A DNA stretch of 64,000 bases from an uncultured Nitrososphaerota archaeon (GCA_963718895.1 CAVRAG010000007.1:736001-800000); one strand, 5' to 3'. Numbered from the stretch's first letter, positions 8,409 through 39,895 are shown. The notes: a model not told the origin generated them from the letters alone. Numbers and translations are program-made.

Positions 8409-8463
8409 CGGTCACAGCTCGAAACCTCATTGGCCCCTAAAACCGTCATTGCAATGAGGAGAC

Positions 8464-8557
8464 GCCCAAAGACGCGCAAATGACTCTCCCGCCCTAAACG
8501 AGAGACGATACACAGGAATTACCTGCGCCGCAAGACATGACCACGAGCGCAGGGGTC
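8464..8557 (+). ncRNA. Dispersed structured RNA element, copy A (5' domain only)
   Basis: Shares ATGACTCTC..GAGACGATACACAGGAATTACCTG..CACGAGCGCA.GGGTC with copy E; CTAAAA box at 8437. Confidence 0.6.
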
Positions 8558-8813
8558 CTTCACTGAACCCACCCCGACACGCCTGTTGCGCTGGGAGCAA
8601 GCCTCTGACCAAACCAAGATGGAATCTTGAGGCGCAATTCAACCGCAAACCGGCGGAGCATCGTGGGACGATCTCTCCACCCTGGTTTGTCAGCGATGAC
8701 GAGAGGTCCCTTGAGCCGGGATACCCACTATCTTCTCTCCGAGTTTGGTCAGGACGAGCACGCCTAGCTCATCATTCGGCTCAGCGCGGTCCTCCGCCGA
8801 ATCGCGCTTTGGC

Positions 8814-9671
8814 TCAGGTCCTCTGCCCGGAAGGAGGCCGCCAGTCGCTGCATCTGGGGCATATCAGGAAGAACTTCGATCCGCTGACGATCTTGAACGA
8901 TGGAGCGCTGCATGTCGGGCATTGGGCCTCTTCCTCCTTCCAGTGCACCTCGAGGCCACGTTCCTTGAGCCAGTCAACGACCGAGAGCACCGTTGGGTCG
9001 GTCAGCATCTCGACGGGTAAGTCTTCGTAGTACTCGACCGCCAGCTTCAGCCTCTCGAACTGGCTCGGAGAGATTTGCCCGTTGAGCGAGTGCCTTGCGA
9101 AGACCGCCGTAAGGCGCTTCCGCTCATCCCCGTCCGCGAGCTTCGTGTCGACGCCGGAGAGCAGGACAATGCACACGAGCGAAACAGCGGCGATGAGCCC
9201 GTAAGGGCTCTGGAGAAACAGTATTGGCAGTCCGACGTAAGGGATGGTGACGGCCGGCACGCCCAGGACGCTGGTCGAGTCTGTGACGAACGGGTCCGGG
9301 GACAGGTTGTTGTCTCCCTTCGTATCGTAGTACGTCACCCCGTTGGCCTCCTGACCGACCCCCACGACCCTGTGGATCACGACAGGCTTCAGGAACGAGT
9401 CGAGGGCCGGAATCCCAGATGAACCCTGAACGAAGACGATGATGCTGCCGTTCGCGATCTGTCCCCGCGGGGCGGTGAAGAAGATGAGCTCACCGTTCTG
9501 GAGCTTGGGGTACATGCTGTTCCCCTGTACGATAGCGACCGGATAGGTGGTCGTCCCGGCGATGAACGGAAGTGCGGCGAGAGTGACAAGTAGGCCGAGA
9601 CTGAGCATGAACAGCAAGCGCCGTTTGTCGAATTTCATTTCCAAAGTCTCCGTTGTGACCATTCTTCTCAT
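8814..9671 (-). CDS. Signal peptidase I (S26, SipW/Sec11-like) with C-terminal Zn-ribbon extension
   Basis: GNSMYP (catalytic Ser), VIHRV (His), TKGDNN..PD, IPYVG; C-terminal CPTC..CPRC. Confidence 0.9.
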   Translation of the reverse strand: MRRMVTTETLEMKFDKRRLLFMLSLGLLVTLAALPFIAGTTTYPVAIVQGNSMYPKLQNGELIFFTAPRGQIANGSIIVFVQGSSGIPALDSFLKPVVIHRVVGVGQEANGVTYYDTKGDNNLSPDPFVTDSTSVLGVPAVTIPYVGLPILFLQSPYGLIAAVSLVCIVLLSGVDTKLADGDERKRLTAVFARHSLNGQISPSQFERLKLAVEYYEDLPVEMLTDPTVLSVVDWLKERGLEVHWKEEEAQCPTCSAPSFKIVSGSKFFLICPRCSDWRPPSGQRT

Positions 9672-11617
9672 GCCCTGTATGTATAAGCCACCTCGAACAG
9701 CGTGGGTTTCGGTGAGCCCCAGAAGATTGTTAGAGCTGCCGACGCTGGCCCGGTTATCACGACCTCGATGTAGCCCGAGGCCGGTACTGTCCCAGCAGAA
9801 GAGGACACAGAGAGAGGCTGGTAGAGCGCGGTCGTCGCCGCGGGCGAATTACTGGCCATCGTGGACTGGACTGTGCCGGCCGAGTCCGTCGTGTAGTACG
9901 AGACTGTGACCGTCTGGGGTGCTGGCATTATCGCGTCGCACAGGGCGCCCCAGTACGTCGTAGACTTCCCGAATGCGCACGATGAAGAGGACAAAGAGGA
10001 GGTCGTTGCAACGTACTCTACAGCGTTCGAATAGCCTACTCCCGCCTCGGTGGCGACGAGAGTGGCCTTTGTTACTCCGATGGTTCCAGCCGTCTCCGTG
10101 ACCGATGTATGGGTGCCAAAGAGCGAGAAGACGAAGTCCGTCTCCGAGACCGTCGAGACGCTAGAGACCGTCGGCGCGGCTGAGGTGGAACTGCAGGAGG
10201 AGACTGCGGCGTCCGGCAGACCCGAGGCGGGGTCGAAGGGAGTGATAGTGTCCGCGCCGGAGACCGCGATGGCGATTCCCGAAGCAGCGGTCGTGGTCGG
10301 AGTCGACGCGAGTTGGACCGTTATCGTGTCCGACGAGAGGGCGGAGGACGCTATCCCGTACCACTCGACCTCCGTGCTCTCCTGCGCGCCGGTGCACACC
10401 GTGTAGGAGTGCCGAGCAGACGACTGCCACGTTATCGCGCTGGCAGAGTCTGATATCGAGGAGACCGCGACGGAGGAACCAGAGTGGTAGGTGACTATCG
10501 AGAGCACGACCACATCGTTGGCATCAGTCGTCGTTAACGACGAAAGGGCGAACGAGGTCCCAGAGGACCAAGTCCCTTCTGCGCTTCCATCCACCGCTGG
10601 CGCGGGCATGTCTGCGAAGAGCTGCAACGACAGTGAGGATGCGGGAATAGACTTTGCTGAAGCGAATTGAGGCGACCAGAGATACATGCTCTCCCCCGCG
10701 GGGAGGGTGAAGCTGGCACTTGAGACGACCGCGTCGCAGATGTCGGCCCAATAGGTCGTTGTCTTCCCGAAGGTGCACGTGATGCCGGACTCGACCGTTG
10801 AGACGACGCTGTACTCCACGGCGAGGGAGTATCCCCTTCCCGCTACGGTACTCAGAAGCGTCGCGGCCGTGGCGCCGATGTTCCCGGCGCTCTCCGTCTT
10901 CGACGTGTAACCGCCGAAGAACGCGATTACGAAGTCGTTGGCGTTCGCGGTCGAGATGGTGTCGCTCGGGTCCGCTGCGGTGGACGAGCAGTCGTTCCCT
11001 ATTGTGCCCCCGTTGGCGGAGGTGTCGATCGGGCTGGATGTGGCTGCGCCGGAGATTGCGACGGCCTCGGCCGAGGCAGCGGTGGGAGTCGCGCTGAGTG
11101 TGATGGTTATCGTATCCGAGGAGAGGACGCCGGAGGCTACACCGTACCACTGAATGTCAGTGGTCTCTTGTGTAGAACTGCAGTCAGTGTACTCGGTCAG
11201 GAAACTGGTCCGCCAGCTTACCGCACCGGCGGTGTCTGTGACGGAGGAGACCGTTATCTCGCTGGCCGACTTGTATGTTACCACGTTGAGGAGAATCACG
11301 TCCGACGTATGGGCCGTGGTCACCGACGTTATGGTAAACGAGGTAGCCGAGGACCACGTACCCGTCCAGTTACCGTCCGAGGAGAGCACTGAGGTCCTGG
11401 TGGGCTCGGTGGTCTGAGTGTCGACGGTGAGGCAGGGCAAGGTGCACCCGGCCACAGGTGCGTTGACGTTCTCGTAGTAAGGGTTCAGAAAGGTGCCTGC
11501 GAAGTCGGCGCCGGTGCTCTTCAGAATCGTCACGTTGGCCGCGGCAGCGACAATGAGCATCGTTGTGGCTGCGCCAGACAGAAGGAGCAGCCGCCACTTC
11601 AGGTTCTGCGAACCCAA
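9668..11617 (-). CDS. Large secreted Ser/Thr-rich protein with a duplicated ~220-aa beta-rich domain
   Basis: N-terminal signal; two repeats (GTWSS.TSF..TT....DV..L..VTY..WYG.AS..LSSDTIT..FGK.TTYW...CDA) with conserved Cys. Confidence 0.8.
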   Translation of the reverse strand: MGSQNLKWRLLLLSGAATTMLIVAAAANVTILKSTGADFAGTFLNPYYENVNAPVAGCTLPCLTVDTQTTEPTRTSVLSSDGNWTGTWSSATSFTITSVTTAHTSDVILLNVVTYKSASEITVSSVTDTAGAVSWRTSFLTEYTDCSSTQETTDIQWYGVASGVLSSDTITITLSATPTAASAEAVAISGAATSSPIDTSANGGTIGNDCSSTAADPSDTISTANANDFVIAFFGGYTSKTESAGNIGATAATLLSTVAGRGYSLAVEYSVVSTVESGITCTFGKTTTYWADICDAVVSSASFTLPAGESMYLWSPQFASAKSIPASSLSLQLFADMPAPAVDGSAEGTWSSGTSFALSSLTTTDANDVVVLSIVTYHSGSSVAVSSISDSASAITWQSSARHSYTVCTGAQESTEVEWYGIASSALSSDTITVQLASTPTTTAASGIAIAVSGADTITPFDPASGLPDAAVSSCSSTSAAPTVSSVSTVSETDFVFSLFGTHTSVTETAGTIGVTKATLVATEAGVGYSNAVEYVATTSSLSSSSCAFGKSTTYWGALCDAIMPAPQTVTVSYYTTDSAGTVQSTMASNSPAATTALYQPLSVSSSAGTVPASGYIEVVITGPASAALTIFWGSPKPTLFEVAYTYRA

Positions 11618-11651
11618 CCGATCACCCCTGGGCTCACTTCCCGGCCCGCTC

Positions 11652-12164
11652 CTAGGCGACCGTTATCTGGACCGCCGCGGGGGCCGTCCACGTCACTGCG
11701 CCCGTGTCCCAGAGGACGGTCATCGTCTGTCCGTTCACGATTGAAGCCGGGCTCGTGAACTGGAAGGTGTAGAGGGTGCTCGTGACGCCGCTGACGGCGG
11801 TGCTCGTGACTGTGATTGTGTAGAGGTAGCTCGTCGCCGCGCCCGTCTGGATCGTTATCGTCCAGGCCACTTCCCAGTCGCCCGCCACGAGAGCGTTCAC
11901 GTACGTCGGGGCCAGGTTAGCCCACGCAAGCCCGCTGACCGATGCAGATTGGGGGGCCTCGACGACGTTGTAGCTGATCGCGGAGGCGAGGAAGTAGCCG
12001 TTGTCGACGACGTACTCTCCTTGGTATCCCACGTTGTTGCTGGTGTTGATGGTCACCGATGCCGCGTAAGCGCCTATGGAGCCGACCATGATGAGTGAGA
12101 GAACGAAGAGGTAGACCAGCCTGACGCTCCTGTGCATGAAAGGTACCTTGATGAATCTCGTCAT
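11652..12164 (-). CDS. Secreted 170-aa filament/pilin-like subunit, paralogue 2
   Basis: Signal peptide ending IGAYAA; beta-rich; highly similar to 12189-12701. Confidence 0.8.
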   Translation of the reverse strand: MTRFIKVPFMHRSVRLVYLFVLSLIMVGSIGAYAASVTINTSNNVGYQGEYVVDNGYFLASAISYNVVEAPQSASVSGLAWANLAPTYVNALVAGDWEVAWTITIQTGAATSYLYTITVTSTAVSGVTSTLYTFQFTSPASIVNGQTMTVLWDTGAVTWTAPAAVQITVA

Positions 12165-12188
12165 CTCCCCAAGACCTCCTCCAAGCTC

Positions 12189-12701
12189 CTAGGCAACCGC
12201 CACTTGAACCGCGGCCGGGGCCGTCCATGTCACAGCTCCCGTGTCCCAGAGAATCGTCATCGTCTGCGTGGGGGTTATCGTCGCGAGGGTCGTGAACTGG
12301 AACTGGTACAACTGAGTGGTCGTTCCAGTGGCTGAAGTGCTGGTCACGGTGATAATGTACGTGTGGCTGGGTGTCGCTCCCGCGTTGAGCGTGATGGTCC
12401 AGAGGACCTCCCAGTCGCCTGGTACAAGGGCGTTCACGTAGGCCGTGCCACTGGGCGCCCATGTCATTGGCTGGGTCGTCAGCGCCTGCGCGCCCTCGAC
12501 GACGTTGTAGGTAATGGCAGAGGCGGTGAAGTAGCCGTTGTCGACGACGTACTCTCCTTGGTATCCCGCGTTGTTGCTAGTGTTGATGGTCACCGATGCC
12601 GCGTAAGCGCCAATCGATCCGATGAGTATGAGCGAAAAGACAGCCACATAGAGCAGCCTTATGCTCCTTCTGACGAAAGGAATCCTTATCATCTTTGCCA
12701 T
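12189..12701 (-). CDS. Secreted 170-aa filament/pilin-like subunit, paralogue 1
   Basis: Same architecture; first gene of an operon that ends in the S26 peptidase. Confidence 0.8.
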   Translation of the reverse strand: MAKMIRIPFVRRSIRLLYVAVFSLILIGSIGAYAASVTINTSNNAGYQGEYVVDNGYFTASAITYNVVEGAQALTTQPMTWAPSGTAYVNALVPGDWEVLWTITLNAGATPSHTYIITVTSTSATGTTTQLYQFQFTTLATITPTQTMTILWDTGAVTWTAPAAVQVAVA

Positions 12702-12889
12702 GATTCTCTCACTTTCTCCTGATGTTTTTTCTTGTGTTATGAGCAGGGGTTACGATTCCCGTCTGATAACCAGAACAGTTTGGCGGGTGAACCCGATATA
12801 AAGTCGTCTAAAAATATCCCAAAAGTCCACCATGTTATCAATTTCTCTTAACATTTCGTCGTTTGAGCCCGTTCGGTTCGTTAGTCCGC

Positions 12890-13510
12890 ATGGCGTTCAC
12901 TGACCTAACGGACGAGGAGTGGGAGGACGTCAGGGGCCTCATCCGGCCACGAGCCAAGAAAGGCAGACCGAGAGGAGACGAAAGACGAACCCTGAACGCA
13001 ATCCTGTTCGTCCTGCAGGAGAAGATACCCTGGAACTACCTCCCGAGCGAGTACGGCAACGACTCGACCCCCAACAGGAGGTTGAAAGAGTGGGAGGAGG
13101 ACGGGACGTGGGACCGAATAGCGGACGCCCTGGGGCTCGTCGAGGACTCCGACCTCATCGGGGAACCCGGCAGCGGAGACTCGGGTCTCGATTCTGGACT
13201 GTGGGACGTCTCGCAGGACTACCCTGCATCGGGTCGAGGGGAACTCCTCTGTCCGGCTCGACCAAGGATCACCATAGCCCGTGGAGATGCACCCGGAGAG
13301 GCTATCGGCGGCATGACAATCATCAGCTGCACGGAGGCAGACACCTGTCTTCCCATGTTTCACGGACCCGTGGGGGGAACGCGTCAGGAATGCATCCCGG
13401 CGACCTGCTTCTTGTTCGTTGAGGGAGAAGATGGGTTCCCGGGGTGCGCACTCGAAGTTCAGCTGGTGAGTTCGACACGCCGCAGGGCTGGACGACCTTC
13501 CCGGCCCTGA
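12890..13510 (+). CDS. IS5-family transposase N-terminal (DUF4096-like) domain fused to an unrelated Cys-rich tail; no DDE domain
   Basis: DLTDEEW...GRP..D.R..LNAILFVL....W..LP.EYG..ST...R...W...G.W. Confidence 0.7.
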   Translation: MAFTDLTDEEWEDVRGLIRPRAKKGRPRGDERRTLNAILFVLQEKIPWNYLPSEYGNDSTPNRRLKEWEEDGTWDRIADALGLVEDSDLIGEPGSGDSGLDSGLWDVSQDYPASGRGELLCPARPRITIARGDAPGEAIGGMTIISCTEADTCLPMFHGPVGGTRQECIPATCFLFVEGEDGFPGCALEVQLVSSTRRRAGRPSRP

Positions 13511-13896
13511 ACTGGGGTACCGAGGTTCAGGCCCACGGGCCCTCGAATTCGATGAGACCTCAGCTGACAAGCCGGGCCGAGTCCTGGCGCAGCTGGAGAC
13601 AAAGGGGCTTGCGACGGACCCGAGGCATCTTCACAGGATGCACGCACCTGTCCGATGGCTATCCCCTCCTGACCAAGGACCGGAGGCATCTGGACCGGAT
13701 ACCGGACCTCCTCGTCCTCACTCGGCGGACCTAGACTCCGGATGGGGCCTGGCTCGGGGTCTCCCTGTCGACCGTGCCTTCTTTGGGCTCGCCACGCCCC
13801 TTGTTGAGGGCGGCTGACCTAGCAAAGACCGGTCCTCGAGTCTGGACCGAGAGAAGGAAAGGTTGGCGGTTAAATTGACTGTCAGCGTGCTTCTAC

Positions 13897-14115
13897 ACCC
13901 GATTGCGCGGACATGAGTCTCCTCCTCGAACTGGAGATGAGCACAGGAATTACCTGAGCCGCAAAAACGTGATCGCGAGCGCAAGGGTCTTCCACGGCGA
14001 GGCGGCCAACGGGTCGAAGAGGAAGACATCACGTCCTCTGACTTTCAAGCGAATGCCGTCCCCGTGTATCGGGAGGGCCAACGAGCGAATGTCTCTTGAG
14101 CAGGCGGACGAACAA
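13897..14115 (+). ncRNA. Dispersed structured RNA element, copy B
   Basis: Near-identical core to copies C and E; TTAAAT box at 13870. Confidence 0.7.
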
Positions 14116-14369
14116 CGAATGGACAGGACCAAGCCTTGTGATTTCGGGGGGCTGAGCGTTTCCAGAAATTCCTGCAAGACTTGCATAGAATAGGACGCTT
14201 ATCCAAGATATGTAACCCAGCGTCCAAGTCCTCTTAGACGGAAATACGGAGCTTTGCAGAGGAGGTTGTGTACTATGTATCACTAACTGGGCGAATATCG
14301 ACCTTGTCGCCCCTATGTGAACGTCCTCGTTATCTACTCTCTTGCGCCGTTGAGGACCGTGGATTGAGG

Positions 14370-14702: not shown

Positions 14703-14742
14703 TGGGAACGAAGAGAATCGGTGCGGTCCGGAAGGACGCCTC

Positions 14743-15701: not shown

Positions 15702-16026
15702 GGACCGTGGGAACGAAAGTATCGGGATTTAGGAAGGAGGTACACTAAGTAGTACCTAGGCGACGAAGATGAGTGTTTTGTCCACCTAGGCAACGGGAGC
15801 GACAGCCTCGTGCATGATTAACAGGGCCGTTAGCAGCTTGCCAGGGCTGTTGTTTCATCAACCAGAGGCCTCGGTGGATGGGACTTCGGGGAGGGGACAC
15901 AGAATCTCGCCCGTGTGGCTGGCTCACCAAGAGAAACCTCCAGGAGGTTCACGTCGCTCATGGTCGTGTCTGTGAATCCTGCGGTATCGAGTGGCGCTTA
16001 AAAATCGCCTTACAGGCTTCGAGGAC

Positions 16027-16250
16027 ACCTGATTGCGCGAAGATGAGTCTCCGGCCTTGAACTGGAGATGAGCACAGGAATTACCTGAGCCGCAAAAACG
16101 TGGTCACGAGCGCAAGGGTCTTCCACGGCGAGGCGGCCAACGGGTCGAAGAGGAAGACATCACGTTCTTTGACATTCCAGCGAACGCCGTCGTGGTGAAA
16201 TCCCGGGAGGACGAACAAGCGCATGTCTGCCTAGACATGCAGACAAACTA
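16027..16250 (+). ncRNA. Dispersed structured RNA element, copy C (weak similarity may extend to ~16392)
   Basis: Near-identical core to copies B and E; TTAAAA box at 15998. Confidence 0.7.
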
Positions 16251-16654
16251 GCGAAGAAGATCAGTCACAGCACACCGAAATCAGGAACCGCTCGGCAGGG
16301 CATCCTATCTTCTGGTAGGGCGCCTCATGATATCCACCGGCCATCCGATTCGGGAAGTGCCAGCCGACGCCTGAGGCGGATCTTGAGCTGAAGCTTCGCT
16401 TCCAGGCTGTCACGATTCAGCTGGTAGAGGAGCCCCCGGACGACCTGTGGCTATCGCGATGCCAGATTCTCCAGCCTTTGAAGGACAGGGTGCAGCCTTC
16501 CCTTGAGCTTGATCGAGCTCGCTTTCTCCGCACTTTGCTGTCACCTATCGCGGCAAAGACTTGTCAGACTTGAGGAGGACCCGGGTTGCCGACAATCTCC
16601 AAACTGCGCTGGGAGGCAATGTTAAAGACACCAGTTTCTCCACACCCAATCAGA

Positions 16655-24269: not shown

Positions 24270-24285
24270 GGAGACTGGCTCACTC

Positions 24286-24603
24286 TCAGAGGTTCACGAC
24301 ACCGGGGAAGAAGTAGAGCACGAGGAACGTGAGCCAGAGCAGGCCCGATGCGCATATCGTGACCCAGAAGTATGCCTTGGTGGTCTTGTGGTGGAAGAAG
24401 AGCCCGCCGAGTATCACGCCTGCGACCCCGCCGGCGAGGGCGATGTGCGCGAGGCTGCGCTCGCTTATCCTGTCGAACCCGATTCGGGCGGAAGTCTTGT
24501 CGGCGAGCATGGCGGCTCCGCCGAGTAGGCTCCAGACCAGGAACCACTCACCGAGAAGCCGCTCGGGGATCATGGAAGCGAGGTTGACGGGGAGCATTGC
24601 CAT
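24286..24603 (-). CDS. DUF1294-family membrane protein, copy 3
   Basis: MLADK..RISERSL..GG..G..LGG.FFHHKT.K. Confidence 0.85.
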   Translation of the reverse strand: MAMLPVNLASMIPERLLGEWFLVWSLLGGAAMLADKTSARIGFDRISERSLAHIALAGGVAGVILGGLFFHHKTTKAYFWVTICASGLLWLTFLVLYFFPGVVNL

Positions 24604-24607
24604 CGCC

Positions 24608-24811
24608 CTAGGCGGTCTTGGGGACCGGGATGCCGCCTTCGTGCATCTCTATCCGGCACTCGGGACAGACGAGCTTCTTGAATAAGCGCCCCACCTTCTT
24701 CTTAGGGCAGGTGTCGCAGTAGAGCTTCCGGCAGCTAGGACACTGCCAAGCGATCCTCCCGCGAAACCCGCCGACCTCCTTGTTGCACTGGATGCAGAAT
24801 CCTCGGACTAA
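24608..24811 (-). CDS. Small 4xCxxC zinc finger, copy 3 (start reads TTA instead of TTG)
   Basis: Manual translation xVRGFCIQCNKEVGGFRGRIAWQCPSCRKLYCDTCPKKKVGRLFKKLVCPEC..; same 204-nt length as copy 2; TTAAAT box at 24836-24841. Confidence 0.8.
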   Translation of the reverse strand, partial: LVRGFCIQCNKEVGGFRGRIAWQCPSCRKLYCDTCPKKKVGRLFKKLVCPECRIEMHEGGIPVPKTA

Positions 24812-24862
24812 AGTGCCCTATGATCAGGAACAAAGATTTAACGACCAAGGACACCTTCGAGA

Positions 24863-26921
24863 TTACGCTTGAGAAGAACTTGCAACTCCCTTTTCGACAA
24901 CACTCAGGGGAGGAAAGGCTCTACTCAAGAGGGGTCCTATTGACTTGTCCAAGGTTCGGGGGTTGGTTTCAAGGAATTTGGTGATGAATGCATGAGCAAT
25001 CAACGGCTTCTTTTCAACACCCTCCCTTCCCTTTATGTACTCGGAAACATCCTTGTATAGGGAACTGTCGAGTTTTTGGATAAAATCCTCCAAATTCTTG
25101 GAGAAGAAGAACACTTGATTGGTCAAATCGTCTATTCCATCATTTCTTACAATGGAGTAGGATTCGCCATCGTCAGAGTACTTGGCAGCGAGCTTTTCTT
25201 AGCGTGTTATCATCATGGTTGTCTCCATCGGCCAAAATCGTAAATGGAATGCCAATGTTGTTTAGAACCCGAGAGTACTTCCCGAAGTTGCCGTTGCTTC
25301 CTACATCTACTATGATGTTCTCTCTCTTGTCAATCTCCATGTCATAGTGCCTCGCCGCAATGTCCAGGAATTCCCGATCGGCCTCTCCCTCGCACATGAC
25401 TATCCTGTTCGCGAAGAATACTCTTGTGTCGATTTGGTATGATAGCTTGTACCGATCCTCGTCTTCAAAATGGAGAGCAGCATTCAGTTGGGTAGCGATA
25501 CTCTTCGCACCGGTTCTTCTAACGTAGAAGAGATTCGCGTTGAAGTCGAATATCAGATTGTGAACCAACTTGGGAGAGTGCGTTGCCACAATAATCTGGC
25601 TCTTCGTTGCAACTAACTTATCCATTAGAGCCTTCATCTGTGGAGGATGGAGATTGACAGCGGGCTCGTCCAGCAATATCACAGAATCTTCTACCCCGAT
25701 CGCCGCGGCCAAGAGAAAAAGCGATTCTGCCAAACCTGCTCCAACACGGTCCAGCTCGAATTGCTTCGAATTCGTTGAATCAGTTACAATGATGTATGTG
25801 TGGTGTGGAACCTGAGGTATGTTTCGTTGTTGAAAGTTTTCTTGACCGAGACTCACGTATCTGGGCAGTACATCGAAACTCAAGGAAGGGAATAGATCCT
25901 GGAAAGATTCCCTTATTGCGCGAAATCTCTTCCTCTGCTCAAGAATGTTGGACTCTTTCAGGCTAAACAGAAACTGGCCAAGATTCCACCCGTCAGCTTC
26001 GAGTCGATTTGTGTACTGTAGAGGTTCGTCTGCCGAGGCTGCCTGAGTGGCAACTGGTGTTTGGGCCACATGGTCAGCTTCGACTGTTGCCTTGCCGAAT
26101 ATCGTGCCTCCGCTTGTGAATATTATCTTGTTCCGCAGAATTGAACCGAGAATTGAAGAGAACGTAATCTGGGAGTTCTGACTTGGCGGAAATCCAGCTG
26201 AAATCAAGACTTGCTGGAACATCCTTCGATGATCCTCCGAGGCATTTGTCAAATATTGATCCTGAATGTCTTGGATTGTAAAGTAGGTCGAATCCTCGAC
26301 AAAGACTTTGTGTGAAGCGGCTTGGGGATCTGCGGACAGACTGATGCCATCCAGGAGACCTGCAAGATTGCTTTCGGGTTGCTTACCTTTGAACCCATTC
26401 TGCATCGAATCTCGAACATCATCCACCACATAGATCGTCCCCGTCCCATTGGGAGCGTGGAATCGTACGCCTAAGTCTATCAGTTCGAGTTCAAACACAT
26501 TATCCCGAGTAGTTGGAAAGTAGCCCAAGGGCCAACCCAGTGTGAGCCGAGCCCTTCTGCAAAGCTCGACGAGACGGTCGAAATTCTTGTAGTCGTAAAC
26601 ATAGGTCCTTTCCCCTGCGGCATCTCTTACTCGATAGACTCTGAGGAAGTCGAGCAGAGTCTTGGCCTCACTATTTGAGAACACCAACTCGGCTGAGAGC
26701 ACTGGAGGCTTGTTCGAGAATACTTCGTCCTCTGACGGCCTCTTGGAGGACGGAGGGAGGCTCTCCGCGAAGAGACGGACTATTCGGAGGAGATTTGACT
26801 TCCCGGAGTTGTTTGGTCCGACAATCACGTTTGACTTGCTAAGCGAGAGGCGTGTGGGCGGCTGCGAGTCGCCATCATACGAGTAAAGGCCTTGCACGGT
26901 CAATTCCTTGAGCTCCACCAT
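24863..26921 (-). CDS. OLD-family ABC-ATPase/TOPRIM nuclease (frameshift near 25170)
   Basis: GPNNSGKS, LLDEP..LHP, ATHS, then TOPRIM-like CEGEAD and ADGD; lower GC than flanks. Confidence 0.8.
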
Positions 26922-27069
26922 GGATTTTACCTCAATTGATTAGAGAATATCGCTTCTCTTAAGGTCTAGTCGATTAGTCTTGGAATGCATCAAGAAGACA
27001 ATCCCGAACAGGCCGGATGCTTCTAGCAAATGCCATTGGTGCTTAAATGCGCTACCAAACTGAGTTTTC

Positions 27070-27240
27070 ACCCTACGACACGCAAATGACTCTCCCGCCC
27101 TAAACCAGAGACGATACGTGGAGTTGCCTGCGCTGGAAGAACGCAGTCTGAGTGTCGAGGGTTGCTCCGCGGAAGGCGAGCCAACAGGTCCGAAGAGGAA
27201 GACTTCACCACGGATCTTTGACTTTCCAGCGAATGCCGTA
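27070..27240 (+). ncRNA. Dispersed structured RNA element, copy D (most divergent; compensatory changes)
   Basis: ACCCT-A-CGACAC pairs with GTGTCG-AGGGT where copies B/C have ACCY..TTGCGC/GCGCAA-GGGT; TTAAAT box at 27043. Confidence 0.65.
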
Positions 27241-27350
27241 CCGTTAACCAGAGAGGGCTCGTTAACCGCGCCCAGTGAAACTTCGACTCAGGCAACACAA
27301 CTCCTATTAGTCAAAGACTAGATTTCTTCTGCGTTGAGAATCTCACAAAC

Positions 27351-29863: not shown

Positions 29864-31074
29864 ATGATTCTGGTTCCGGGTGACGTGATCCAAGGCAAGA
29901 GCGAGTCGTATACCATACGCGTCCCACTTTCGAATAGGTCAGTTACATCGGACGTCTACAAAGCAACGACCGAAGATCGAAAGGCGCGTTCGCGGTGAAG
30001 ACCCCGAGGATTGAAAACGACCAAGACAACAACGACCTGTTAACCCAAAGGATGAGAAGGGAGGCATCCATACTGCAACGAATCAACCATCCCAACGTCG
30101 TGAAATATGTCGACCAGGCAGAGCGGGATGGAAGCTTCTTGCTCGTTGAACAGTTTGTATCCGGAGAGAATCTGAACGACCTTCGCGGCCATCCTCCTCA
30201 GCCGATGAAGGAACTCGACGCGACCGGTTACAGTCTCACTCTTCTCAAGGTCTTGGAGTACCTACACGGTCAGGCCGATCCCATCATCCATGGAGACATA
30301 AGACCAGAGAATGTCCTCATAGGCAATCGGACAGGACGTTTTGTGCTAATCAACTTCGCAACGCAGGACTTGGTTGAGACATCGAACCTGACGTTTCGCC
30401 CCGGTATCAAGGGGTACAGCGCCCCTGAGCAGTTAAGAGGTGAAGCGACAGCGCTCTCAGATATCTATTCGGCTGGCGCGTTCGTCTTCGCGTCAGTTAC
30501 AGGAAGGCAACCAAGTGACTATATCGACCTGGTCGATGGTCACCTGACCACCCTTCCCAGCGAAATCGTTCCATCGGTCAGCGAGAATCTTTCGAAGGTC
30601 ATAGCTCAGGCCATGAGCCCCCAACGCTTCGAATCAGCACGGTCGATGTATGCAGCGATTCGCAACGCGATGCCGAAGAATCCAGCGACCGTTATGCTAG
30701 AATCAAGATCGTATCAGGTGACCGATAGCATTGAAATCGGCCGTCGGCACGAGTGCAATCGCATCTGCGCACAGAGGGGAAGCCACTGTCTACCCGAGAT
30801 CCTCGTCTCTGAAGGCGCCCAGTACGTGTCGCCCCACCACGCCAAGATCTTTCGGAGTGAGCAAAATGTGTGGTATGTTAAGGACCTGATCACTCGGAAC
30901 CACACGGCCCTGTCGTCCGATGGAGGCAAAACTTTCCGGGTCATACCTCCCGGAGGCGTGGACATGATGCACTCTGACGACGTCATCGCGATCGTCTATT
31001 CCGGCAGCTCATGCTGTGAAATCGCTCATAAACACGAAGGAGCACTCAAGACGTTGTTATTCAAGGAGACATGA
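29864..31074 (+). CDS. Ser/Thr kinase-fold protein (degenerate motifs) with C-terminal FHA domain; frameshift near 29990
   Basis: AVK, HPNVV, HGDIRPEN, YSAPEQ, DIYS; FHA-like IGR..VS.HHA..DL...N.T. Confidence 0.8.
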
Positions 31075-31087
31075 GGCGGGAATCTCG

Positions 31088-31951
31088 ATGAGCGATGGTA
31101 GAGAGCGATTTCAGGAGGGCCTCGACTCGGAGGCAGATTCGACTCAGACCAATGACCCGCAGGCTTCGGGTCCAGGCCCTCGATTTGGCTTCGCCTCTAA
31201 CGTGGGGTTGAAGAGGAAGGTCGACGAAGACAGCCTTCTTGTCCTTGAGGTTACGGTGGTATTCGACGCGAGGGTGAGGAGGAGGGTCTTGCTGGCCATC
31301 TCGGATGGCATGAGTGGACACCCCAGGGGTGAAATTGCGAGCAGAATAGTAATCAGAACCCTTGTTGGAGTTTTGTGCAACGTCATGGCCAGTAATACCG
31401 CAATCAGCGCCAAGATGGCGAGCGAGGAGATCGTTGGCGCAATCCAAGAAGCAGGCAAGAGAATGAACGTTTACTCGAGCCGCGTTCCGGGCAGCACTGG
31501 AATGGGCGCGACAGTGGTCCTCGCCATGATAGACGGAGACCAAATCTATTCCGCGAATCTGGGCGATTCCAGAGTCTACGTGATCAATCGAGAGGGGATA
31601 CGACGGGTCACGAAGGATCACTCGTACGTCCAAGAACTCGTAGATTCAGGTAAGATAGAGGCCGATGCAGCCAAGACCCATCCCAGAAGGAACTTGGTGA
31701 CCCGCGTTGTTGCCGCAGATTCCGATTCGACGCCACGCACCTTCGCAGATACTCTAGTCGAAGGCGACATTGTGCTCGTCTGCTCTGATGGTATCCACCT
31801 TTACATCGATGACGATGAGCTGAGAAAAATCATTCTTGAGGAATCAGATCCCCAGCGTGTCTGCGACAAACTCATCGCGATGGCGAACGGAAGAGGAGGC
31901 GCCGACAATGTATCCGTAATCATGTTTCCGTTCGGTTCCATGAAGGAGTGA
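31088..31951 (+). CDS. PP2C-family Ser/Thr phosphatase
   Basis: EDS, SDGMSGH, GDSRVY, DHS, CSDG, GGADN. Confidence 0.92.
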   Translation: MSDGRERFQEGLDSEADSTQTNDPQASGPGPRFGFASNVGLKRKVDEDSLLVLEVTVVFDARVRRRVLLAISDGMSGHPRGEIASRIVIRTLVGVLCNVMASNTAISAKMASEEIVGAIQEAGKRMNVYSSRVPGSTGMGATVVLAMIDGDQIYSANLGDSRVYVINREGIRRVTKDHSYVQELVDSGKIEADAAKTHPRRNLVTRVVAADSDSTPRTFADTLVEGDIVLVCSDGIHLYIDDDELRKIILEESDPQRVCDKLIAMANGRGGADNVSVIMFPFGSMKE

Positions 31952-35667: not shown

Positions 35668-36505
35668 GTTCGACTTCGTCGTCCTTTAGCGGGGCCCGGG
35701 ATCTCGACCTGAAAAGGTCCTTCCCCAGTTCAGAAGCTCCGGTCTTGGCGACGGTCCTTTCGATCTCTCTCTTGGCACTATAGCTACTATCGGCCAAGTG
35801 ACCGACGACCAAAGGGCCTAGCATCTGGTTCAGCGTGTCTACCCTGCTTTCAAGACCCTTCATCATGGTCTTCTCGAAATCCAGTCGTCCCTCTTGATTC
35901 TTGCGGAAATCTTCCTGCAGTCCCCTGAAGGAGGATGTGACCTGTTCAGTACCGGCTATCACCTTGCCCATTCGCTCTTCCTTTATCGCGCCCAACCTCG
36001 CATTTCCGCCCTGAGCGATCGTGAACCCGGCTCGGACGCTCCCAATCGCTATCACTATTATCACCGCCAGTGAGATAATCGACGCGTACGAAGGAATGCT
36101 CTTTGACAGGATCGGGTCGACTACGAACGCGAGGAAGAGAATTACCAGAGCGGCAGTAGCGCCGATCTTGGCGAGGTCTATCAAGGTGGTGACATGGACG
36201 TGCCGCCTCATAGAGGGTTCGTGGTAGGTCGAGGAGATCTCTTCGAGGGATGTGTCGAGCAGATTCTCCATTTTCGACTGGACGCTATGAAGCCTCGTAG
36301 TCTCCTCGTCGAACTTGTCCTCCGCGCCGTCGATGAAGTTCTCCAGCTTCGCGCTCACGTGCGTGAGGTTACCAAAGACGGATTCCATTGCAGTTGGGAT
36401 GGTCTGTGAGGGGGTCAGAATCGTGGGGGGCGAGTGCGGTTGAACCCTGATCGGTAATTTCTCGTCGGAAATCGCCATCTCATCGTCGGGGTCGTCGGCA
36501 GGCAT
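35660..36505 (-). CDS. Two-TM coiled-coil membrane protein coupled to HerA
   Basis: Helical segments flank two TM helices; overlaps the HerA start. Confidence 0.75.
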   Translation of the reverse strand: MPADDPDDEMAISDEKLPIRVQPHSPPTILTPSQTIPTAMESVFGNLTHVSAKLENFIDGAEDKFDEETTRLHSVQSKMENLLDTSLEEISSTYHEPSMRRHVHVTTLIDLAKIGATAALVILFLAFVVDPILSKSIPSYASIISLAVIIVIAIGSVRAGFTIAQGGNARLGAIKEERMGKVIAGTEQVTSSFRGLQEDFRKNQEGRLDFEKTMMKGLESRVDTLNQMLGPLVVGHLADSSYSAKREIERTVAKTGASELGKDLFRSRSRAPLKDDEVELD

Positions 36506-36612
36506 AGCGTCAAAGTCCTCGTATCAACTACACCATTGAGTATTTATGACTTGTCAGCTGGAAGGAACCCTAAGGCTTTGGAGAGGAATTGAAAGACGGA
36601 GTGACAACGTAG

Positions 36613-37127
36613 TTGCCGAGTGATGGAAATGATATTCAAAGCGGCCAGTCGACACTCCAAGCTGCTCCTTCTCCCGCACAGACCAATCAACCAAAGAGCG
36701 CGGAATCTGGCGCCAACGGGTCAGCGGTTGACACCAAGCCGATGGGTGAAGTTGATTCTGTCCTGTCCGAGAATCCCAAAGTGAAATCCCTCAATGCAGA
36801 GGAATCAAACTCCATCAAGAATGCAATCTCCACAGGTTCCGGCACACAGATTCCGCAGATCGAGTAGCTTTCGAGTTCGTCTTAACCTTCCAAGTCGACA
36901 CCTCCAGCAGATGAGACCAACCTTGGCGACGCCAATTGTCATCGATGGACTCCACACCAAGGAACGGGCAGAGGGCTGTTGACAACTCTAAACTCGATTC
37001 CCTGAAGCCGCGCCTGAGATGGAAGGTGAGAAGGAAGAGAGGGGGATTGCAGGAGCGCAATGAAGACGAGCCATTCATCGGTGAAGACGAGGGCGAAGAG
37101 TAGGATGATAGAGGTGACGAGGATTGA
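36613..37127 (+). CDS. Acidic/low-complexity hypothetical protein (frameshifted; 3' end approximate)
   Basis: ORF 36613-36867 continues in other frames to a D/E-rich end. Confidence 0.35.
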
Positions 37128-37282
37128 TGGCGATCATCGGACTCGCGAACTCACGATAGCGGAATAGCAAGCCTCACAGGTGGAAAGAGCTCTCCCCGTG
37201 ATGTGGGCATCAGTCGGTCGGACCTCTTGGCGGGAAGCCTTTTAGATTCCGGAGCAGCCCGATTGAGACCGGCCAGGGTGGA

Positions 37283-39384
37283 TTGAAGGCGAATCGGGAA
37301 ATCATTTTGGGGGTAGACCTGGGAACCACAAGTTCCTGCGCAGCAATATTTGATTCTAAGGGCCTCCGAATAATCTCCACTCAGGGCATATCTGCTGAAG
37401 CGGAAAAGACATTCCCCTCGGTAGTGGCCGTCACCGGCGAGGGTCGCGTCGTGGTAGGAGAGAGGGCCAGGCTTCAGCTCTCGAATAACCATGAGAGCGC
37501 CGTGAGCGAGAACGAAGGGCAAGCTCGGCACGAACTATAGGGTGAGTTTGAATGGAAAGGAGTACACCGCTGAGCAGATAAGCGCCTTTATCATCCGGAG
37601 AATTCGGAACGAGACAGACAAGGTGCTCGGGTATCCCATCAGGAAGGTGGTCATGACCGTACCCTCGTACTTCAACTACAATCAAGATCGAGCTGTACGA
37701 GAGGCTGCAAATTTGGCAGGACTAGAGTTGGTCAGGCTGCTCCCTGAGTCCGTGGCAGCGGGCGCCGCCTGGTGCGTCGACAGGCCTGACTGGGAGGGAG
37801 AAAATGTTGGTGATCTCCCTTGGAGGGGGTGGTCACGATGTGGCAGTTATGAATACAGGAGGAGGGGTGATGCAAGTCCTCTCTACGATCGGGCAACCCG
37901 AGAGCGGAGGAGATAGCTTGGACTGGGCCATCGTCGAGCTCTTCCTGGAGGACATCAAGAACACGACGAGAACGAACCTTAGAGACGATCCAGCCTCCAT
38001 GGTCCGGTTGAAGCTCGCCGCGGAGAAGGCCAAGATGGAACTCTCGAATTTGGATTCGACGAATGTCACACTCCACTCTTCCAGCGCTTCCGAAATACTT
38101 AGATGGAACTACACGCTGACGAGGATGAAGCTAGAGGAGCTGGCGGCCCCTATGATATCGAAACTGGAGGAGTCGGTGGGCGACGCTCTCGAATCGGCAG
38201 AAGTCCCTGCGTCGGCGATTGACAGGCTGATCCTCGTCGGAGGAATGACGAGAATCCCGTTCGTCAGGACCGAATCGAGGGATTGGTCGGCAAGAGCGCA
38301 GAGGCGAAGGTCGACTTAATGTACGCACCGGCCCTCGGCGCGGCAATCGAAGCATCCGTTCTTGACGGCCAGCGGAAGGACTTCCTGATTCTTAGAACGA
38401 CGAGGCTCTCGCTCAGCGTCGACTAGGGGAGGGAAGTGTGACCAAAATCGTGAGCAAGAACACCACAATCCCCACCAAGCAGACGAGGATATTTTCGACG
38501 GCGGCGGACCTCCAGACGGCGGTCACGATTCGCGTGCTCCAAGGGGAGAGCGCGATGGCCTCCGACAACCTCCCTCCTAGGTACACTCGGGACTCGATGC
38601 AGTCCCCGCTCCCAAGGGGGTCCCTCAGATCGAGGTCGGCGTGGAGATAGATGCTTCCGAAATTCTGCGGGTCGTCGCCAAGGACCTCGGAACGGGAAAG
38701 AAGAAGGAGATGTCTCTCTCGAGATGGCACACGCTATCCGGTTCGACGAACACCGCACGCAGAGGCTCCATCGCTGAGACACCCGACGCGTCTCAGAGCG
38801 TCACTGCGACAGCCGGGACAGGCCCGGCCGCTGGTCGTGAGAGTGGCGGCCCTCCCGAGGCTGAAGAGCGGCGAATCTATCAGGAGAGGAGTGAGAAGGT
38901 GGTTGCATCAACACCTCTTCAGCACAACAGCAGGGAAGATTGGGAAAGGGTCTATCACCGCGACGTACGTCTGGCAGAAGGGGCAGCCGTGCGCAACGTC
39001 CTCGAAAAACTTCTTGCGGTGCGGGATGACCTCGATGCGGCGATAATGGCCATGGAAAAGCGAGGGGATGAGGGCCCCCTCCTTGAGGGTGTGAAAATGA
39101 CCCTCAGGAAGCTCGATTCGCTCATGGCGACAGAGGGCGTGAGGCCCATCGAGGCGGTCGGAAAGCTGTTCAACCCGCACCTGCACGAAGCAATAGATAG
39201 GGTTCAGGGTACGGGGGACAGAGACCTGGTGATTGAAGAGATTCGAAGGGGATTCATGTACGGGGACAAGGTCCTCAGACCGAGCTCTGTGAAGGTCGAG
39301 CTGGCGTCTCGGACGAACGACAATCGAACAACTGATTGGGCCGAGAGCCCGGGCCTTGTATTCCTATGGTGGGCGCGAGGTTAA
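37283..39384 (+). CDS. Divergent Hsp70/DnaK-like protein fused to a GrpE domain (several frameshifts in the Hsp70 part)
   Basis: [48 protein letters not shown]; ORF 38641-39384 runs from [13 protein letters not shown] into GrpE LEGV..FNP.LHEA..GF..GDKVLRP. Confidence 0.75.
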
Positions 39385-39469
39385 TCGAAGATCACCTCGG
39401 TCAAGCCGCCACCTCGGCAGAAGCCAGAAGGCGACGGGAGGCAGACAACCAATCAAGGACGGCGGGGGG

Positions 39470-39476
39470 TTAAATA
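39470..39476 (+). promoter_or_regulatory. Archaeal TATA box for RNA element E / LAGLIDADG unit
   Basis: TTAAATA 27 nt upstream of the element start; the same spacing occurs in copies A, B and D. Confidence 0.65.
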
Positions 39477-39496
39477 GAGTGACGGATGGTTTGTGT

Positions 39497-39895
39497 GCCC
39501 GACTCCGCGAAAATGACTCTCTCGCCCTGAACGGGAGACGATACACAGGAATTACCTGAGCCGCAAAAACGTGGTCACGAGCGCAAGGGTCTTCCACGGC
39601 GAGGCGGCCAACGGGTCGAAGAGGAAGACATCATCTTTGACTTTCCAGCGAATGCCGTCCTGGTGAAATCCCGGGAGGGCGAAACAGCGCATGTCTGCCG
39701 ACGAGGCGGACGAACAGGCGAAATCGCGCAAAGCGGACTCAGGCACCCGACCACGGCTTCTCCGAAACCAGACCCACGCTGCAGGCTCAGGTGGCCGTCT
39801 GCCCCATCTGGGATGCGTTTCAGCGTCGTTTCCCGATTTGTGGCGTGCGTGGGACCTGGCGGGAAGGAAGCTGCGGTCGAGCACAGGAGCTGAAA
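39497..39895 (+). ncRNA. Structured RNA element, copy E (leader of the LAGLIDADG gene; conserved core to ~39720)
   Basis: Hairpins TCTCTCG/CGGGAGA, CAGG/CCTG, GCCGC/GTGGT, CTTCC/GGAAG, TCCTGG/CCGGGA, GTCTGCC/GGCGGAC. Confidence 0.7.

Follow-up and report, generated by a model that had tools for sequence, protein, structure and literature searches.

A pseudoknotted RNA element upstream of free-standing LAGLIDADG-type endonuclease-like genes in one family of uncultured Nitrososphaerota archaea

Results

Overview of the locus

The DNA analysed here, hereafter the window, is a stretch of 64,000 nucleotides (nt) of contig 7 (positions 736001-800000) of assembly GCA_963718895.1, which represents an uncultured Nitrososphaerota archaeon and comprises 11 contigs with 3,127,762 bases at 80.5% completeness. 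The window harbours five copies, designated A to E and all located on the + strand, of a repeated element of about 230-250 nt, and downstream of copy E a free-standing gene, P0002, specifying a putative endonuclease of the LAGLIDADG type (Table 1). Comparison with related genomes indicates that this element is a structured, pseudoknotted RNA, designated type 1, which as part of an intact unit precedes such nuclease genes and which may act as a leader of their messenger RNA. The genome was assembled from a metagenome and many of its genes are split (dnaK, aEF-2, restriction-modification genes and the second gene of the nuclease cassette), probably through frameshift errors, and genes described as frameshifted may in reality be intact; all functional statements made here are deductions from sequence.

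Table 1. Features of the window, with positions counted from its first nucleotide (scores refer to covariance model R1; ORF, open reading frame; aa, amino acids).
Feature	Position	Strand	Description
Copy A	8437..8582	+	Box CTAAA at 8437; RNA 5′ domain from RCCY at 8464; truncated; 91.3 bits
Copy B	13870..14122	+	Box TTAAA at 13870; RNA from RCCY at 13897, 5′ and 3′ domains; 123.6 bits
Copy C	15998..16255	+	Box TTAAA at 15998; RNA from RCCY at 16027; best model score, 137.5 bits
Copy D	27043..27262	+	Box TTAAA at 27043; RNA from RCCY at 27070; most divergent copy; 84 bits
Copy E	39470..39745	+	Box TTAAA at 39470; RNA from RCCY at 39497 to about 39745 (P1-P8 and short conserved tail); 126.2 bits
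P0002	39896..41146	+	LAGLIDADG-type endonuclease-like gene, 416 aa; ATG at 39896, GGAG before it; assigned by PF14528, motifs and structural model
Second cassette gene	41143..41697	+	Split into ORFs of 94 and 89 aa; about 200 aa in relatives
DUF1294-like left border	7293..7963	-	Divergent from A; split into two ORFs; homologues upstream of the RNA in relatives
Second DUF1294-like border	24285..24849	-	72-85% identical to 7398-7964; upstream of D
aEF-2, right border	50338..52208	+	Read as two ORFs
IS4/5 transposase fragment (DUF4096)	12863..13510		Just upstream of B
OLD/GajA-like gene	25173..26921	-	Inserted between second DUF1294-like border and D
Kinase-FHA gene	29995..31074		Downstream of D
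PP2C phosphatase gene	31016..31951		Downstream of D

The RNA starts in each copy at an RCCY motif, with the A/T-rich box located 27, 27, 29, 27 and 27 nt upstream in copies A to E, respectively, and the sequence of the interval is different in each of the five. A first-pass annotation of the window had proposed exactly such an arrangement, i.e. five same-strand copies of a covarying fold with a TATA-like box at a fixed distance and completely different intervening sequence, and its coordinates were confirmed, as were the paired differences it had listed for the closing stem (TTGCGC/GCGCAA in B and C versus CGACAC/GTGTCG in D), the first hairpin (TCTCTCG/CGGGAGA in E versus TCTCCGG/CTGGAGA in C, with the CCYYRAA loop in all five copies) and the 3′ hairpin (GTCTGCC/GGCGGAC in E versus GTCTGC/GCAGAC in C). 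Alignment of the five copies with MAFFT yielded 405 columns with a mean column identity of 64%, the likeness stopping shortly past a 3′ hairpin. The genome-wide copy count which the same annotation had recommended was obtained by BLAST of copy E against the whole 3.13-Mb assembly, and this search found the five places in the window and no others.

None of the 4227 models of Rfam 15 matched the window at the gathering threshold, and at E values up to 10 the region 39400-41400 gave just four chance-level matches of 13.7-17.7 bits, as compared to gathering scores of 41-62, none of which was to an intron, ribozyme or HEARO model. ARAGORN detected no tRNA or tmRNA in the window, and a search for tandem repeats between 8000 and 42000 found none, the RNA being a single unit of about 250 nt.

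Structure and conservation of the RNA

BLAST over 97 genomes of the window's own family supplied relatives of the RNA from other genera, and 16 copies from nine genomes (the five of the window and 11 others) were aligned with MAFFT to give alignment A4. The resulting structure comprises helices P1 to P3, a pseudoknot of P4 and P5, and the 3′ hairpins P7 and P8. P1 is the two-part closing stem, P2 the first hairpin and P3 a hairpin of CAGG/CCUG, while the 3′ strands of P4 (GCCGC/GCGGC) and P5 (CGUGG/CCACG) lie beyond the 3′ strand of P1, so that the two helices together form a pseudoknot. The 5′ domain, which had been described as a multi-way junction, is not simply closed by the outer stem, given that P4 and P5 cross the 3′ strand of the latter. 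A further stem, P6 (GGGUCGAAGA/UCUUUGACU), was seen in copies of the window and is absent from the consensus. Four unpaired stretches are conserved, namely AUGAR before P2, GAUGA after P2, CAAAAAC between P4 and P5, and GGAAGAC in the 3′ domain.

The covariation reported for the window copies persisted in this expanded alignment, where 85.6% of 486 cells were paired as compared to 76.4 ± 0.9% after shuffling and 17 of the 31 pairs had changed on both sides as compared to 9.9 ± 1.6, neither value being reached by any of 500 shuffles, although kin genomes are not independent and such controls consequently overstate significance. Sliding the 3′ partners by 1-3 columns left 35.8-45.2% of cells paired. 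As the structure had partly been derived from the tested sequences, P4 and P5 were retested on an alignment of 27 distinct rows made with R1, the covariance model of the type 1 RNA, which holds only helices P1-P3; here 83.3% of cells were paired (shuffled, 76.4 ± 1.2%; slid controls, 30.9-54.5%) and seven of ten pairs had changed on both sides (shuffled, 2.7 ± 1.1), which no shuffle out of 500 reached. P7 and P8 of the 3′ domain also covary, with double changes in seven of ten predicted pairs among 15 sequences.

A protein-coding origin of the repeat, which the first-pass annotation had named as the competing explanation of its conservation, was ruled out, as variable columns were spread evenly over the three codon phases (52, 53 and 49 of 72, 72 and 71), insertions and deletions relative to copy E were mostly of 1 nt, and stop codons occurred in all six frames of C and E. 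Minimum-free-energy folds of single sequences and of the alignment differed between copies and missed the pseudoknot, and folding Z-scores (E, -2.1; D, -0.3; the leader of G036a, -2.2) are uninformative on their own. No convincing sequestration of a ribosome-binding site was found in the predicted folds. On the comparative sequence evidence, the type 1 RNA is a genuine structured RNA whose fold is under selection; its strand is assigned from the box and from the orientation of the downstream gene.

Conservation of the helices differs between the copies of the window. All helices are intact in C (P1 10/10, P2 7/7, P3 4/4, P4 5/5 and P5 5/5 pairs); in B the tips of P2 and P8 are weakened, and in D the outer stem is fully compensated (CGACAC/GTGTCG) while no recognisable P8 hairpin is left. 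The match of copy A is limited to roughly the first 100 nt and its 3′ domain is missing. The suggestion that A retains exactly the 5′ domain holds as far as the 3′ strand of the outer stem, beyond which the pseudoknot partners are degenerate (P4 1/5 and P5 3/5 pairs).

Promoter and transcription

R1 located 24 places in 12 of the 97 family genomes, and the region 22-33 nt upstream of these places reads TGG(C/G)G(C/G)TTAAAT or a close variant thereof. By eye, an A/T-rich box at the same distance was recognised in 20 of the 24 copies, of which 12 carry an exact TTAAA and eight carry variants (TTATAT, TTAGAT, CTAAAA, TCAAAT, TTATTA), while the four copies without a box are low-scoring or divergent. 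The window encodes an archaeal-type signal peptidase, and a 20-letter core pattern of the RNA compared with a species-level genome collection gave 30 stretches, of which five are true matches, all in Thaumarchaeota or Nitrososphaerota/Nitrososphaerales records; on both counts an archaeal promoter consisting of B recognition element (BRE) and TATA box represents the right model for the box. The remaining 25 stretches are bacterial and match by chance, which an 18-base pattern is expected to do.

In related genomes, leaderless LAGLIDADG-type genes are preceded by a box of the same type at 26-27 nt from the start codon, a spacing which equals the 27 nt from box to RCCY and which therefore places the transcription start, on good grounds, at or next to the first base of P1; the varying 20 nt between box and P1 would then lie upstream of the transcript. 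These leaderless-looking genes belong to a third free-standing LAGLIDADG subfamily of 427-446 aa, in which the sequence at this distance is a TATA box.

Contigs 95-97% like the stretch were present in two peat metatranscriptome runs from one study, which are unstranded and carry no information on transcript ends. One such contig extends from P2 through the 3′ domain and, across a deletion of the linker, to just before the start codon, and others cover parts of the LAGLIDADG-type ORF, which hints that leader and gene are transcribed as one unit; uncovered portions carry no weight in either direction.

Association with nuclease genes

Comparison of the flanks of all copies revealed that the ORF following E is related to ORFs following the RNA in three other genomes, and alignment with six other gene-linked copies pointed to E as the leader of its LAGLIDADG-type gene. 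RNA-side searches covered the 97 genomes of the window's own family and the protein-side search 401 genomes of its order; linkage counted from the RNA side carries no selection bias. Sequence of at least 700 nt was available downstream of 22 type 1 places, and a gene or gene remnant follows in four: E and G025a with full-length genes, G028 with a frameshifted gene and G036a with only the first 64 residues. A further, weak type 1 copy (L093:2004-2110, 30.6 bits) precedes a 74-residue remnant.

A protein-side scan of metagenomes returned 19 loci, ten of which reach about 330 nt or further upstream from the projected start, and nine of these ten carry an RNA upstream, which is of type 1 in three (L096, L103 and L108) and of a second type in six; neither type was found upstream in L112. 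In type 2 the closing stem again has two parts, around GCGC/GCGC, and the further elements are AUGAA, one hairpin, CGAU, another hairpin and a GGAAGAC stretch rich in purines. R1 scores type 2 at 10.6 bits or less, and a search by eye for a type 2 pseudoknot found none with support. Both types share their architecture, the junction motifs (AUGAR before P2 and GAU after it), the GGAAGAC stretch and the associated gene, and are likely, albeit not proven, to be homologous. When searched with its own model, R2, type 2 was found once each in 14 of the 97 family genomes, and in 13 of the 14 a LAGLIDADG-type ORF follows on the same strand at about 40-820 nt from the modelled RNA. Five of these 13 ORFs are of the P0002 type and eight of another, P0039, which displays the textbook motif LLAFLVGDGG.

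The P0002 protein family was present in 13 of the 401 genomes of the order, all belonging to the window's own family (12 of its 96 other genomes), and in none of 304 genomes in 19 other families, and at ten of its 16 genomic places an RNA lies within 1.5 kb upstream. R1 and R2 found nothing in 150 genomes from 12 other families of the class, and a viral collection (viral_contigs) contained neither a relative of the protein nor an exact match to the RNA core pattern, so far as these collections reach placing RNA and protein in a single archaeal family, the only one in which they were found.

The genome of the window itself carries a type 2 RNA on contig 8 (894653-894795, +; L131:5654-5796). It is followed by an inserted minus-strand ORF resembling aspartyl proteases (L131:5813-6199) and then by a 381-aa LAGLIDADG-type ORF (L131:6312-7457) which contains LLAFLVGDGG and seems frameshifted at its second motif; genes nearby are HerA-like, RecA/KaiC-like and DpnI-like. 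The RNA on contig 8 precedes a P0039-type gene, and its type 2 counterpart in G019 a P0002-type gene; the two RNAs are 84% identical, and about 93% identical over the first 137 aligned columns. The likeness resumes at the ribosome-binding region (TTGAGCCAAAACTC.A.GGAGGTGA) and continues for about seven codons before the sequences diverge, and an alignment of the two proteins is limited to a short stretch ahead of the second motif (hhalign probability 1.8%). As RNA, ribosome-binding site and first codons are alike while the protein bodies are unalignable, the segment from promoter to first codons appears to be one portable, conserved module. The linker between RNA and start codon varies from almost none in G036a, where the type 1 RNA runs into the start codon, to about 150 nt in E and about 250 nt in L103.

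These data bear on the view of the first-pass annotation, according to which the RNA is an independently transcribed unit under selection. Selection on the fold, the absence of coding capacity and the conserved box uphold that view, yet the intact unit appears to be the 5′ part of a LAGLIDADG-type gene. If the RNA were nevertheless an autonomous non-coding RNA gene, the LAGLIDADG genes would be parasites homing into its 3′ flank, gene-less copies being empty sites and truncated ORFs decaying invaders. Three stages of a homing cycle can indeed be recognised behind type 1, namely an intact ORF (E and G025a), a frameshifted or truncated one (G028, G036a and G037) and none, two unrelated LAGLIDADG subfamilies follow the same type 2 RNA, and homing endonucleases typically target conserved RNA genes. 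Such an explanation is unlikely, in our view, as the shared sequence extends through the ribosome-binding site into the first codons, which makes leader and ORF start one unit as opposed to a host gene with an insert, and as type 2 is occupied in 13 of 14 cases; moreover, both RNAs are patchily distributed (12 and 14 of 97 family genomes for R1 and R2, and none of 150 elsewhere in the class), and the RNA erodes when alone, in a manner unlike that of a useful host gene.

Two other observations concern the upstream regions of these genes. On contig 17 of G025, RNAs of type 2 and type 1 stand in tandem (L118:943-1081 and 1151-1267) with 70 nt between them, ahead of a single LAGLIDADG-type gene, and palindrome-like motifs such as GGCACATTTTGTGCC recur upstream of the type 2 RNAs in L095, L099 and L102.

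Properties of the encoded protein

P0002 matches the LAGLIDADG-like domain PF14528 with an E value of 0.0014 and 19.3 bits, which is under the cut-off of 22.5, while its G025 homologue matches at 1e-5 and 13 of 34 aligned family members match at E values up to 0.01 (best, 2.8e-6). A large protein collection yielded 37 relatives, nearly all unnamed, one of which is labelled by its source as a LAGLIDADG family homing endonuclease. Two LAGLIDADG-type helices, each ending in a conserved acidic residue, were found in the family, with the motifs GYRGDA and WD(A/S)EGS, and D186, E281 and G282 are invariant in 34 sequences.

An AlphaFold2 model of P0002 built on the family alignment (mean predicted local distance difference test, pLDDT, 88.8; predicted template modelling score, pTM, 0.87) was compared with known structures using Foldseek, and all 13 matches at E values up to 1e-3 were LAGLIDADG enzymes. 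Residues of about 170-405 superimpose on I-DmoI (Z 11.5-12.2, root-mean-square deviation 2.4-3.0 Å over 153-167 residues), and the model also resembles I-Tsp061I (Z 12.2) and intein endonucleases (Z 12.5-15.2). Profile match and predicted alpha-beta-beta-alpha-beta-beta-alpha double-domain fold are both present, and the beta-sheet DNA-binding saddle is kept in the prediction. P0002 thus shares with I-DmoI, I-Tsp061I and the inteins PI-PfuI, PI-SceI and TliVMA the predicted fold of this region and the acidic residues of both motifs, but it is only 9-17% identical to these enzymes, carries an additional N-terminal domain of 170 residues and is encoded by a free-standing gene outside any intron or intein.

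Residues 1-170 are conserved and helical, and were matched to no recognisable fold. A profile of this domain found only weak matches of the helix-turn-helix type among Protein Data Bank (PDB) sequences (E 0.4-0.6), and a wide structural search with a separate model (pLDDT 77.9) had as its best result a Z of 5.3 over a helical hairpin; the lack of a match is not equivalent to a new fold. PDB sequence searches with the whole protein or a profile gave chance-level matches only, and in the ESM Atlas the nearest clusters to the homologue P0026 are of the DOD/LAGLIDADG type (0.84-0.87), which serves as a lead only. No RuvC or HNH match was found in the gene adjoining the RNA, and PADLOC matched neither of the LAGLIDADG proteins nor the second cassette gene. 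According to this predicted structure, P0002 is a LAGLIDADG enzyme with two motifs in one monomer, each of which keeps its catalytic-type acidic residue, and with an extra domain. The observed states of gain, decay and loss of the ORF would fit a homing cycle, with DNA cleavage as the putative activity.

Homologues of the second cassette gene, which matched no Pfam entry, are located directly after the LAGLIDADG gene in G025, G028, G019 and L106. Matches to the LAGLIDADG_3 profile were numerous in G027, G021, G012, G040 and G041 (3-33 each, 16-33 in four of them), and many of these are part of open frames 1000-2600 aa long and probably represent inteins.

Copies lacking a nuclease gene and organization of the locus

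No remnant of a LAGLIDADG gene was detected behind A, B, C or D using tblastn and hidden Markov models over six frames. Copy A is followed by convergent genes, B, like G027b, by an ORF of 144 aa and a HicB-like gene, C by a short-chain dehydrogenase gene about 330 nt further on, and D by ORFs with immunoglobulin (Ig)-like repeats and by genes for a Ser/Thr kinase-FHA protein and a PP2C phosphatase. Roughly half of the gene-less copies across genomes face a convergent gene, from which it follows that they are not consistently leaders of other genes. Counts of intact pairs per helix showed P2-P5 to be almost complete in gene-linked copies, and gene-less copies to range from complete (C and G027a, although P8 of the latter no longer pairs by our reading) through weakened (B and D) to eroded (A, G027b, G040b, G041d, G037a and G012), the most eroded ones also being without a box. 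The claim that selection, not neutral duplication, accounts for these copies holds only in part: C is intact, while the eroded or truncated state of A, G027b, G040b and G041d marks some copies as remnants. The simplest reading of these sequences is that gene-less copies are leftovers after gene loss; the covariation arose between cassette lineages and is no proof that each of A to D has been maintained, and the well-kept ones may have a function in trans.

Such a function would be in keeping with an RNA that assists the LAGLIDADG nuclease in trans, whether as cofactor, as scaffold or as guide, the two assembling into a ribonucleoprotein as do HEARO or omega RNA and IscB; gene-less copies would be additional RNA genes at the service of the one nuclease gene in the genome. 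The placement of a structured RNA directly upstream of a nuclease ORF is HEARO-like, the RNA is far better conserved than the protein (84% versus unalignable), its complex pseudoknotted fold has strongly conserved unpaired stretches, and the intact boxes of B, C and D as well as the helices of C fit this explanation. We nevertheless consider it unlikely. No hypervariable, guide-like single-stranded segment exists between close copies, whose differences are spread over stems and compensated, and the 5′ end begins directly at the conserved P1; LAGLIDADG enzymes read DNA through their own beta-sheets, of which the saddle is kept in the predicted model; many gene-less copies are eroded; and G027 has the RNA without the associated protein subfamilies.

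The DUF1294-like gene divergent from A has homologues upstream of the RNA in G025, G028, G027, G040 and G041, those of G025 and G028 matching PF06961. In G027, G036, G021 and G012 the RNA or the LAGLIDADG gene is followed by a co-oriented aEF-2, and L115, L107, L103, L099 and L117 contain, 46 nt to 2 kb further on, a large and highly conserved ORF that is putatively aEF-2; at times the LAGLIDADG gene ends only 46-416 nt before it. These positions point to an ancestral locus consisting of a leftward DUF1294-like gene followed, all rightward, by the RNA, the LAGLIDADG gene, the gene of roughly 200 aa, variable genes and aEF-2. In the window, the 42 kb between A and aEF-2 contain five RNA modules; the DUF1294-like border is duplicated and A and D are 75% alike in their promoter and 5′ part, and it may be concluded from these two features that at least two alleles of the locus are stacked.

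The island contains an OLD/GajA-like gene, two HerA/mad8-like ATPase genes, a PD-T4-6-like kinase gene, a HicB-like gene, an IS4/5 transposase fragment and, in pieces, an MmeI-like restriction-modification system, and the same locus in relatives contains a Schlafen-like helicase, MazG, GmrSD, PIN, Fic and a group II intron. This defence-island setting lends some weight to an RNA that inhibits the nuclease in an antitoxin-like manner, as part of a defence or addiction module: RNA and nuclease gene stand in the order known from type III toxin-antitoxin loci, the RNA coming first, and orphan copies could be anti-addiction elements. A related proposal, for which the lariat-capping ribozyme, a pseudoknotted RNA of about 200 nt upstream of the gene for the homing endonuclease I-DirI, is a precedent, is that of a ribozyme which shapes the 5′ end of the nuclease mRNA. 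Either role is distinctly unlikely in our estimation, as the RNA is a single unit without the tandem direct repeats of ToxIN-like type III systems, PADLOC did not recognise the protein, GIR1, group I introns and every self-cleaving ribozyme family of Rfam went unmatched even at an E value of 10, and the data contain no sign of toxicity or cleavage.

The repeats might alternatively act as DNA, either as recombination sites which delimit cassettes in the manner of integron attC or as homology arms, the fold being that of single-stranded DNA or irrelevant. Five same-strand copies do separate blocks of unrelated genes, the borders of the locus are stacked, and G-U combinations in paired columns (46 cells) are not clearly commoner than A-C (36 cells). 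We regard this as very improbable: no tyrosine or serine recombinase, nor any other recombinase family, was found among the 80 ORFs of the window that were scanned, cargo genes occupy both strands, the promoter box is at a fixed distance and the unit continues into the ORF, while the repeats themselves, at about 250 nt and with many helices, a pseudoknot and a box, are unlike attC and have close relatives in RNA libraries.

Discussion

We see an even chance that the RNA is a leader of the nuclease mRNA which acts mainly in cis and which is bound by, or regulates, its own nuclease. According to this reading, a BRE/TATA-type archaeal promoter about 27 nt upstream would transcribe the RNA, whose native setting would be the 5′ module of a free-standing LAGLIDADG cassette composed of promoter, RNA, variable linker, ribosome-binding site and a nuclease of about 415 aa, often ending with a second gene of about 200 aa and residing in the variable, defence-gene-rich locus between the DUF1294-like gene and aEF-2. 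Copy E would represent such a cassette, and A to D derivatives which have lost the nuclease gene, are at different stages of decay and may have accumulated through tandem stacking of locus alleles, as the two DUF1294-like borders and five RNA modules suggest. LAGLIDADG proteins bind structured RNA as maturases, and the leader might, by analogy with the intron RNA of these maturases, be recognised by its own protein, which could set the amount of nuclease or restrain an enzyme potentially cutting the genome. With a leader acting in cis, it would be understandable that the 5′ module stays whole and has been recombined onto different nuclease bodies. As regards position, a gene lies behind the RNA in 13 of 14 type 2 cases and in four of 22 type 1 cases plus the one weak copy, and a single unstranded RNA-library contig bridges the leader and the start region.

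A number of findings weigh against a leader function in cis. Six of the 16 places of the protein family have no RNA upstream (L115, L116, L123, the second G036 copy and two C-terminal fragments), which includes four full-length members, three of them (L115, L116 and L123) occupying in genus g10 the same conserved place, which is flanked by a membrane-protein gene and by an ORF that is probably aEF-2. The boxes of B, C and D are perfect and C has lost none of its helices, which fits a trans-acting RNA equally well, and the complete genome G027 has two gene-less copies, one of 132 bits, and no gene of the associated subfamilies, its only LAGLIDADG genes being of the third, leaderless subfamily. 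Base pairing alone leaves the strand of the RNA unfixed, the transcription start and the co-transcription of leader and gene are inferred from sequence, and the RNA-library contigs possibly derive from DNA carry-over. Furthermore, a leader that merely tunes expression seldom requires seven helices plus a pseudoknot. In a bolder form of partnership the RNA, a dedicated one outside any intron, would be an obligate component of a LAGLIDADG ribonucleoprotein and would serve DNA cleavage as a scaffold, as a licence or as an aid in targeting, with B, C and D as alternative RNA subunits; we judge this to be quite unlikely.

LAGLIDADG enzymes are classic protein-only meganucleases and, to our knowledge, their only RNA partners are host introns. 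Structured RNAs located beside nuclease genes have reportedly become functional partners in several instances, i.e. HEARO with IscB, omega RNA with TnpB and bridge RNA with IS110. The HEARO/omega RNA of IscB (RF02033) is similarly a large pseudoknotted RNA that immediately precedes a nuclease ORF on the same strand, forms with it a patchy, multi-copy pair, and was noticed before its function was known. In contrast, the RNA described here matches no Rfam family, starts at the base-paired P1 without a variable 5′ guide segment and shows no transposon ends, and its protein has the LAGLIDADG fold as opposed to RuvC/HNH.

The lariat-capping ribozyme GIR1 measures about 190 nt, is double-pseudoknotted and forms the 5′ end of the mRNA of the homing endonuclease I-DirI, whose ORF it immediately precedes; it is eukaryotic, part of a twin-ribozyme intron and precedes a His-Cys box enzyme, and in these respects, as in its Rfam membership, differs from the element of the window. 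Group I and some group II introns likewise couple a LAGLIDADG gene to a structured, pseudoknotted RNA, to which maturases bind. The RNA of the window is distinct from them in being located outside host genes and entirely 5′ of the ORF, with its own box; the flanks of its copies are intergenic and differ from copy to copy, exon context and splice-site features are lacking, and neither Intron_gpI nor group II models matched. Group I introns of archaeal rRNA genes can encode LAGLIDADG proteins (PMC6125680). Autoregulatory mRNA leaders, such as those of ribosomal-protein genes (PMC7247131), also place a conserved structured 5′ leader before the gene of a possible binder, but the RNA of the window is much larger and pseudoknotted, is tied to a nuclease of a selfish or defence type and exists in gene-less copies.

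Within the portions of the full-text literature consulted, no description was found of a structured RNA with free-standing archaeal LAGLIDADG genes, while supplements of RNA-motif surveys might contain one. To that extent the RNA family is undescribed; structured RNAs associated with nucleases are known as a kind, and a LAGLIDADG partner is without precedent outside introns.

The present analysis defines a concrete RNA-protein pair, in which a free-standing LAGLIDADG family is accompanied by a large pseudoknotted RNA better conserved than the protein, in a little-studied lineage of soil and peat archaea and within a defence island near aEF-2. Were the pair to form a ribonucleoprotein, it would be a LAGLIDADG counterpart of HEARO/IscB and of TnpB with its omega RNA and a possible driver of cassette exchange in the island; even if it were only the autoregulatory leader of a selfish nuclease, the RNA would represent a new archaeal class in a domain thinly covered by Rfam. 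The stacked alleles and decaying cassettes additionally show how an archaeal variable locus is built.

Additional observations

The region before aEF-2 is a recurrent variable, defence-gene-rich spot in the family (L085, L088, L089, L090, L099, L103, L107, L115 and L117), and in G027 a group II intron-type reverse transcriptase (RVT_1, GIIM and HNH; L085:7250-9049) lies between an RNA copy and aEF-2. Within the window, repeats with a period of 537 nt, 72-83% identical, extend across minus-strand ORFs at 11648-12689, and the ORFs of 151 and 525 aa following D contain three tandem units of about 654-664 nt (27838-29343; 72-75% identical) for which only weak Ig-like hints (Big_1 and MG2) were obtained. 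Split or partial genes at 37804-38319, 38641-39384, 46270-48471 and 50338-52208 reflect frameshifts which are possibly assembly errors; an Hsp70 fragment adjoins grpE, and the MmeI-like pieces are situated in a low-GC stretch (43-47% GC, 44-50 kb).

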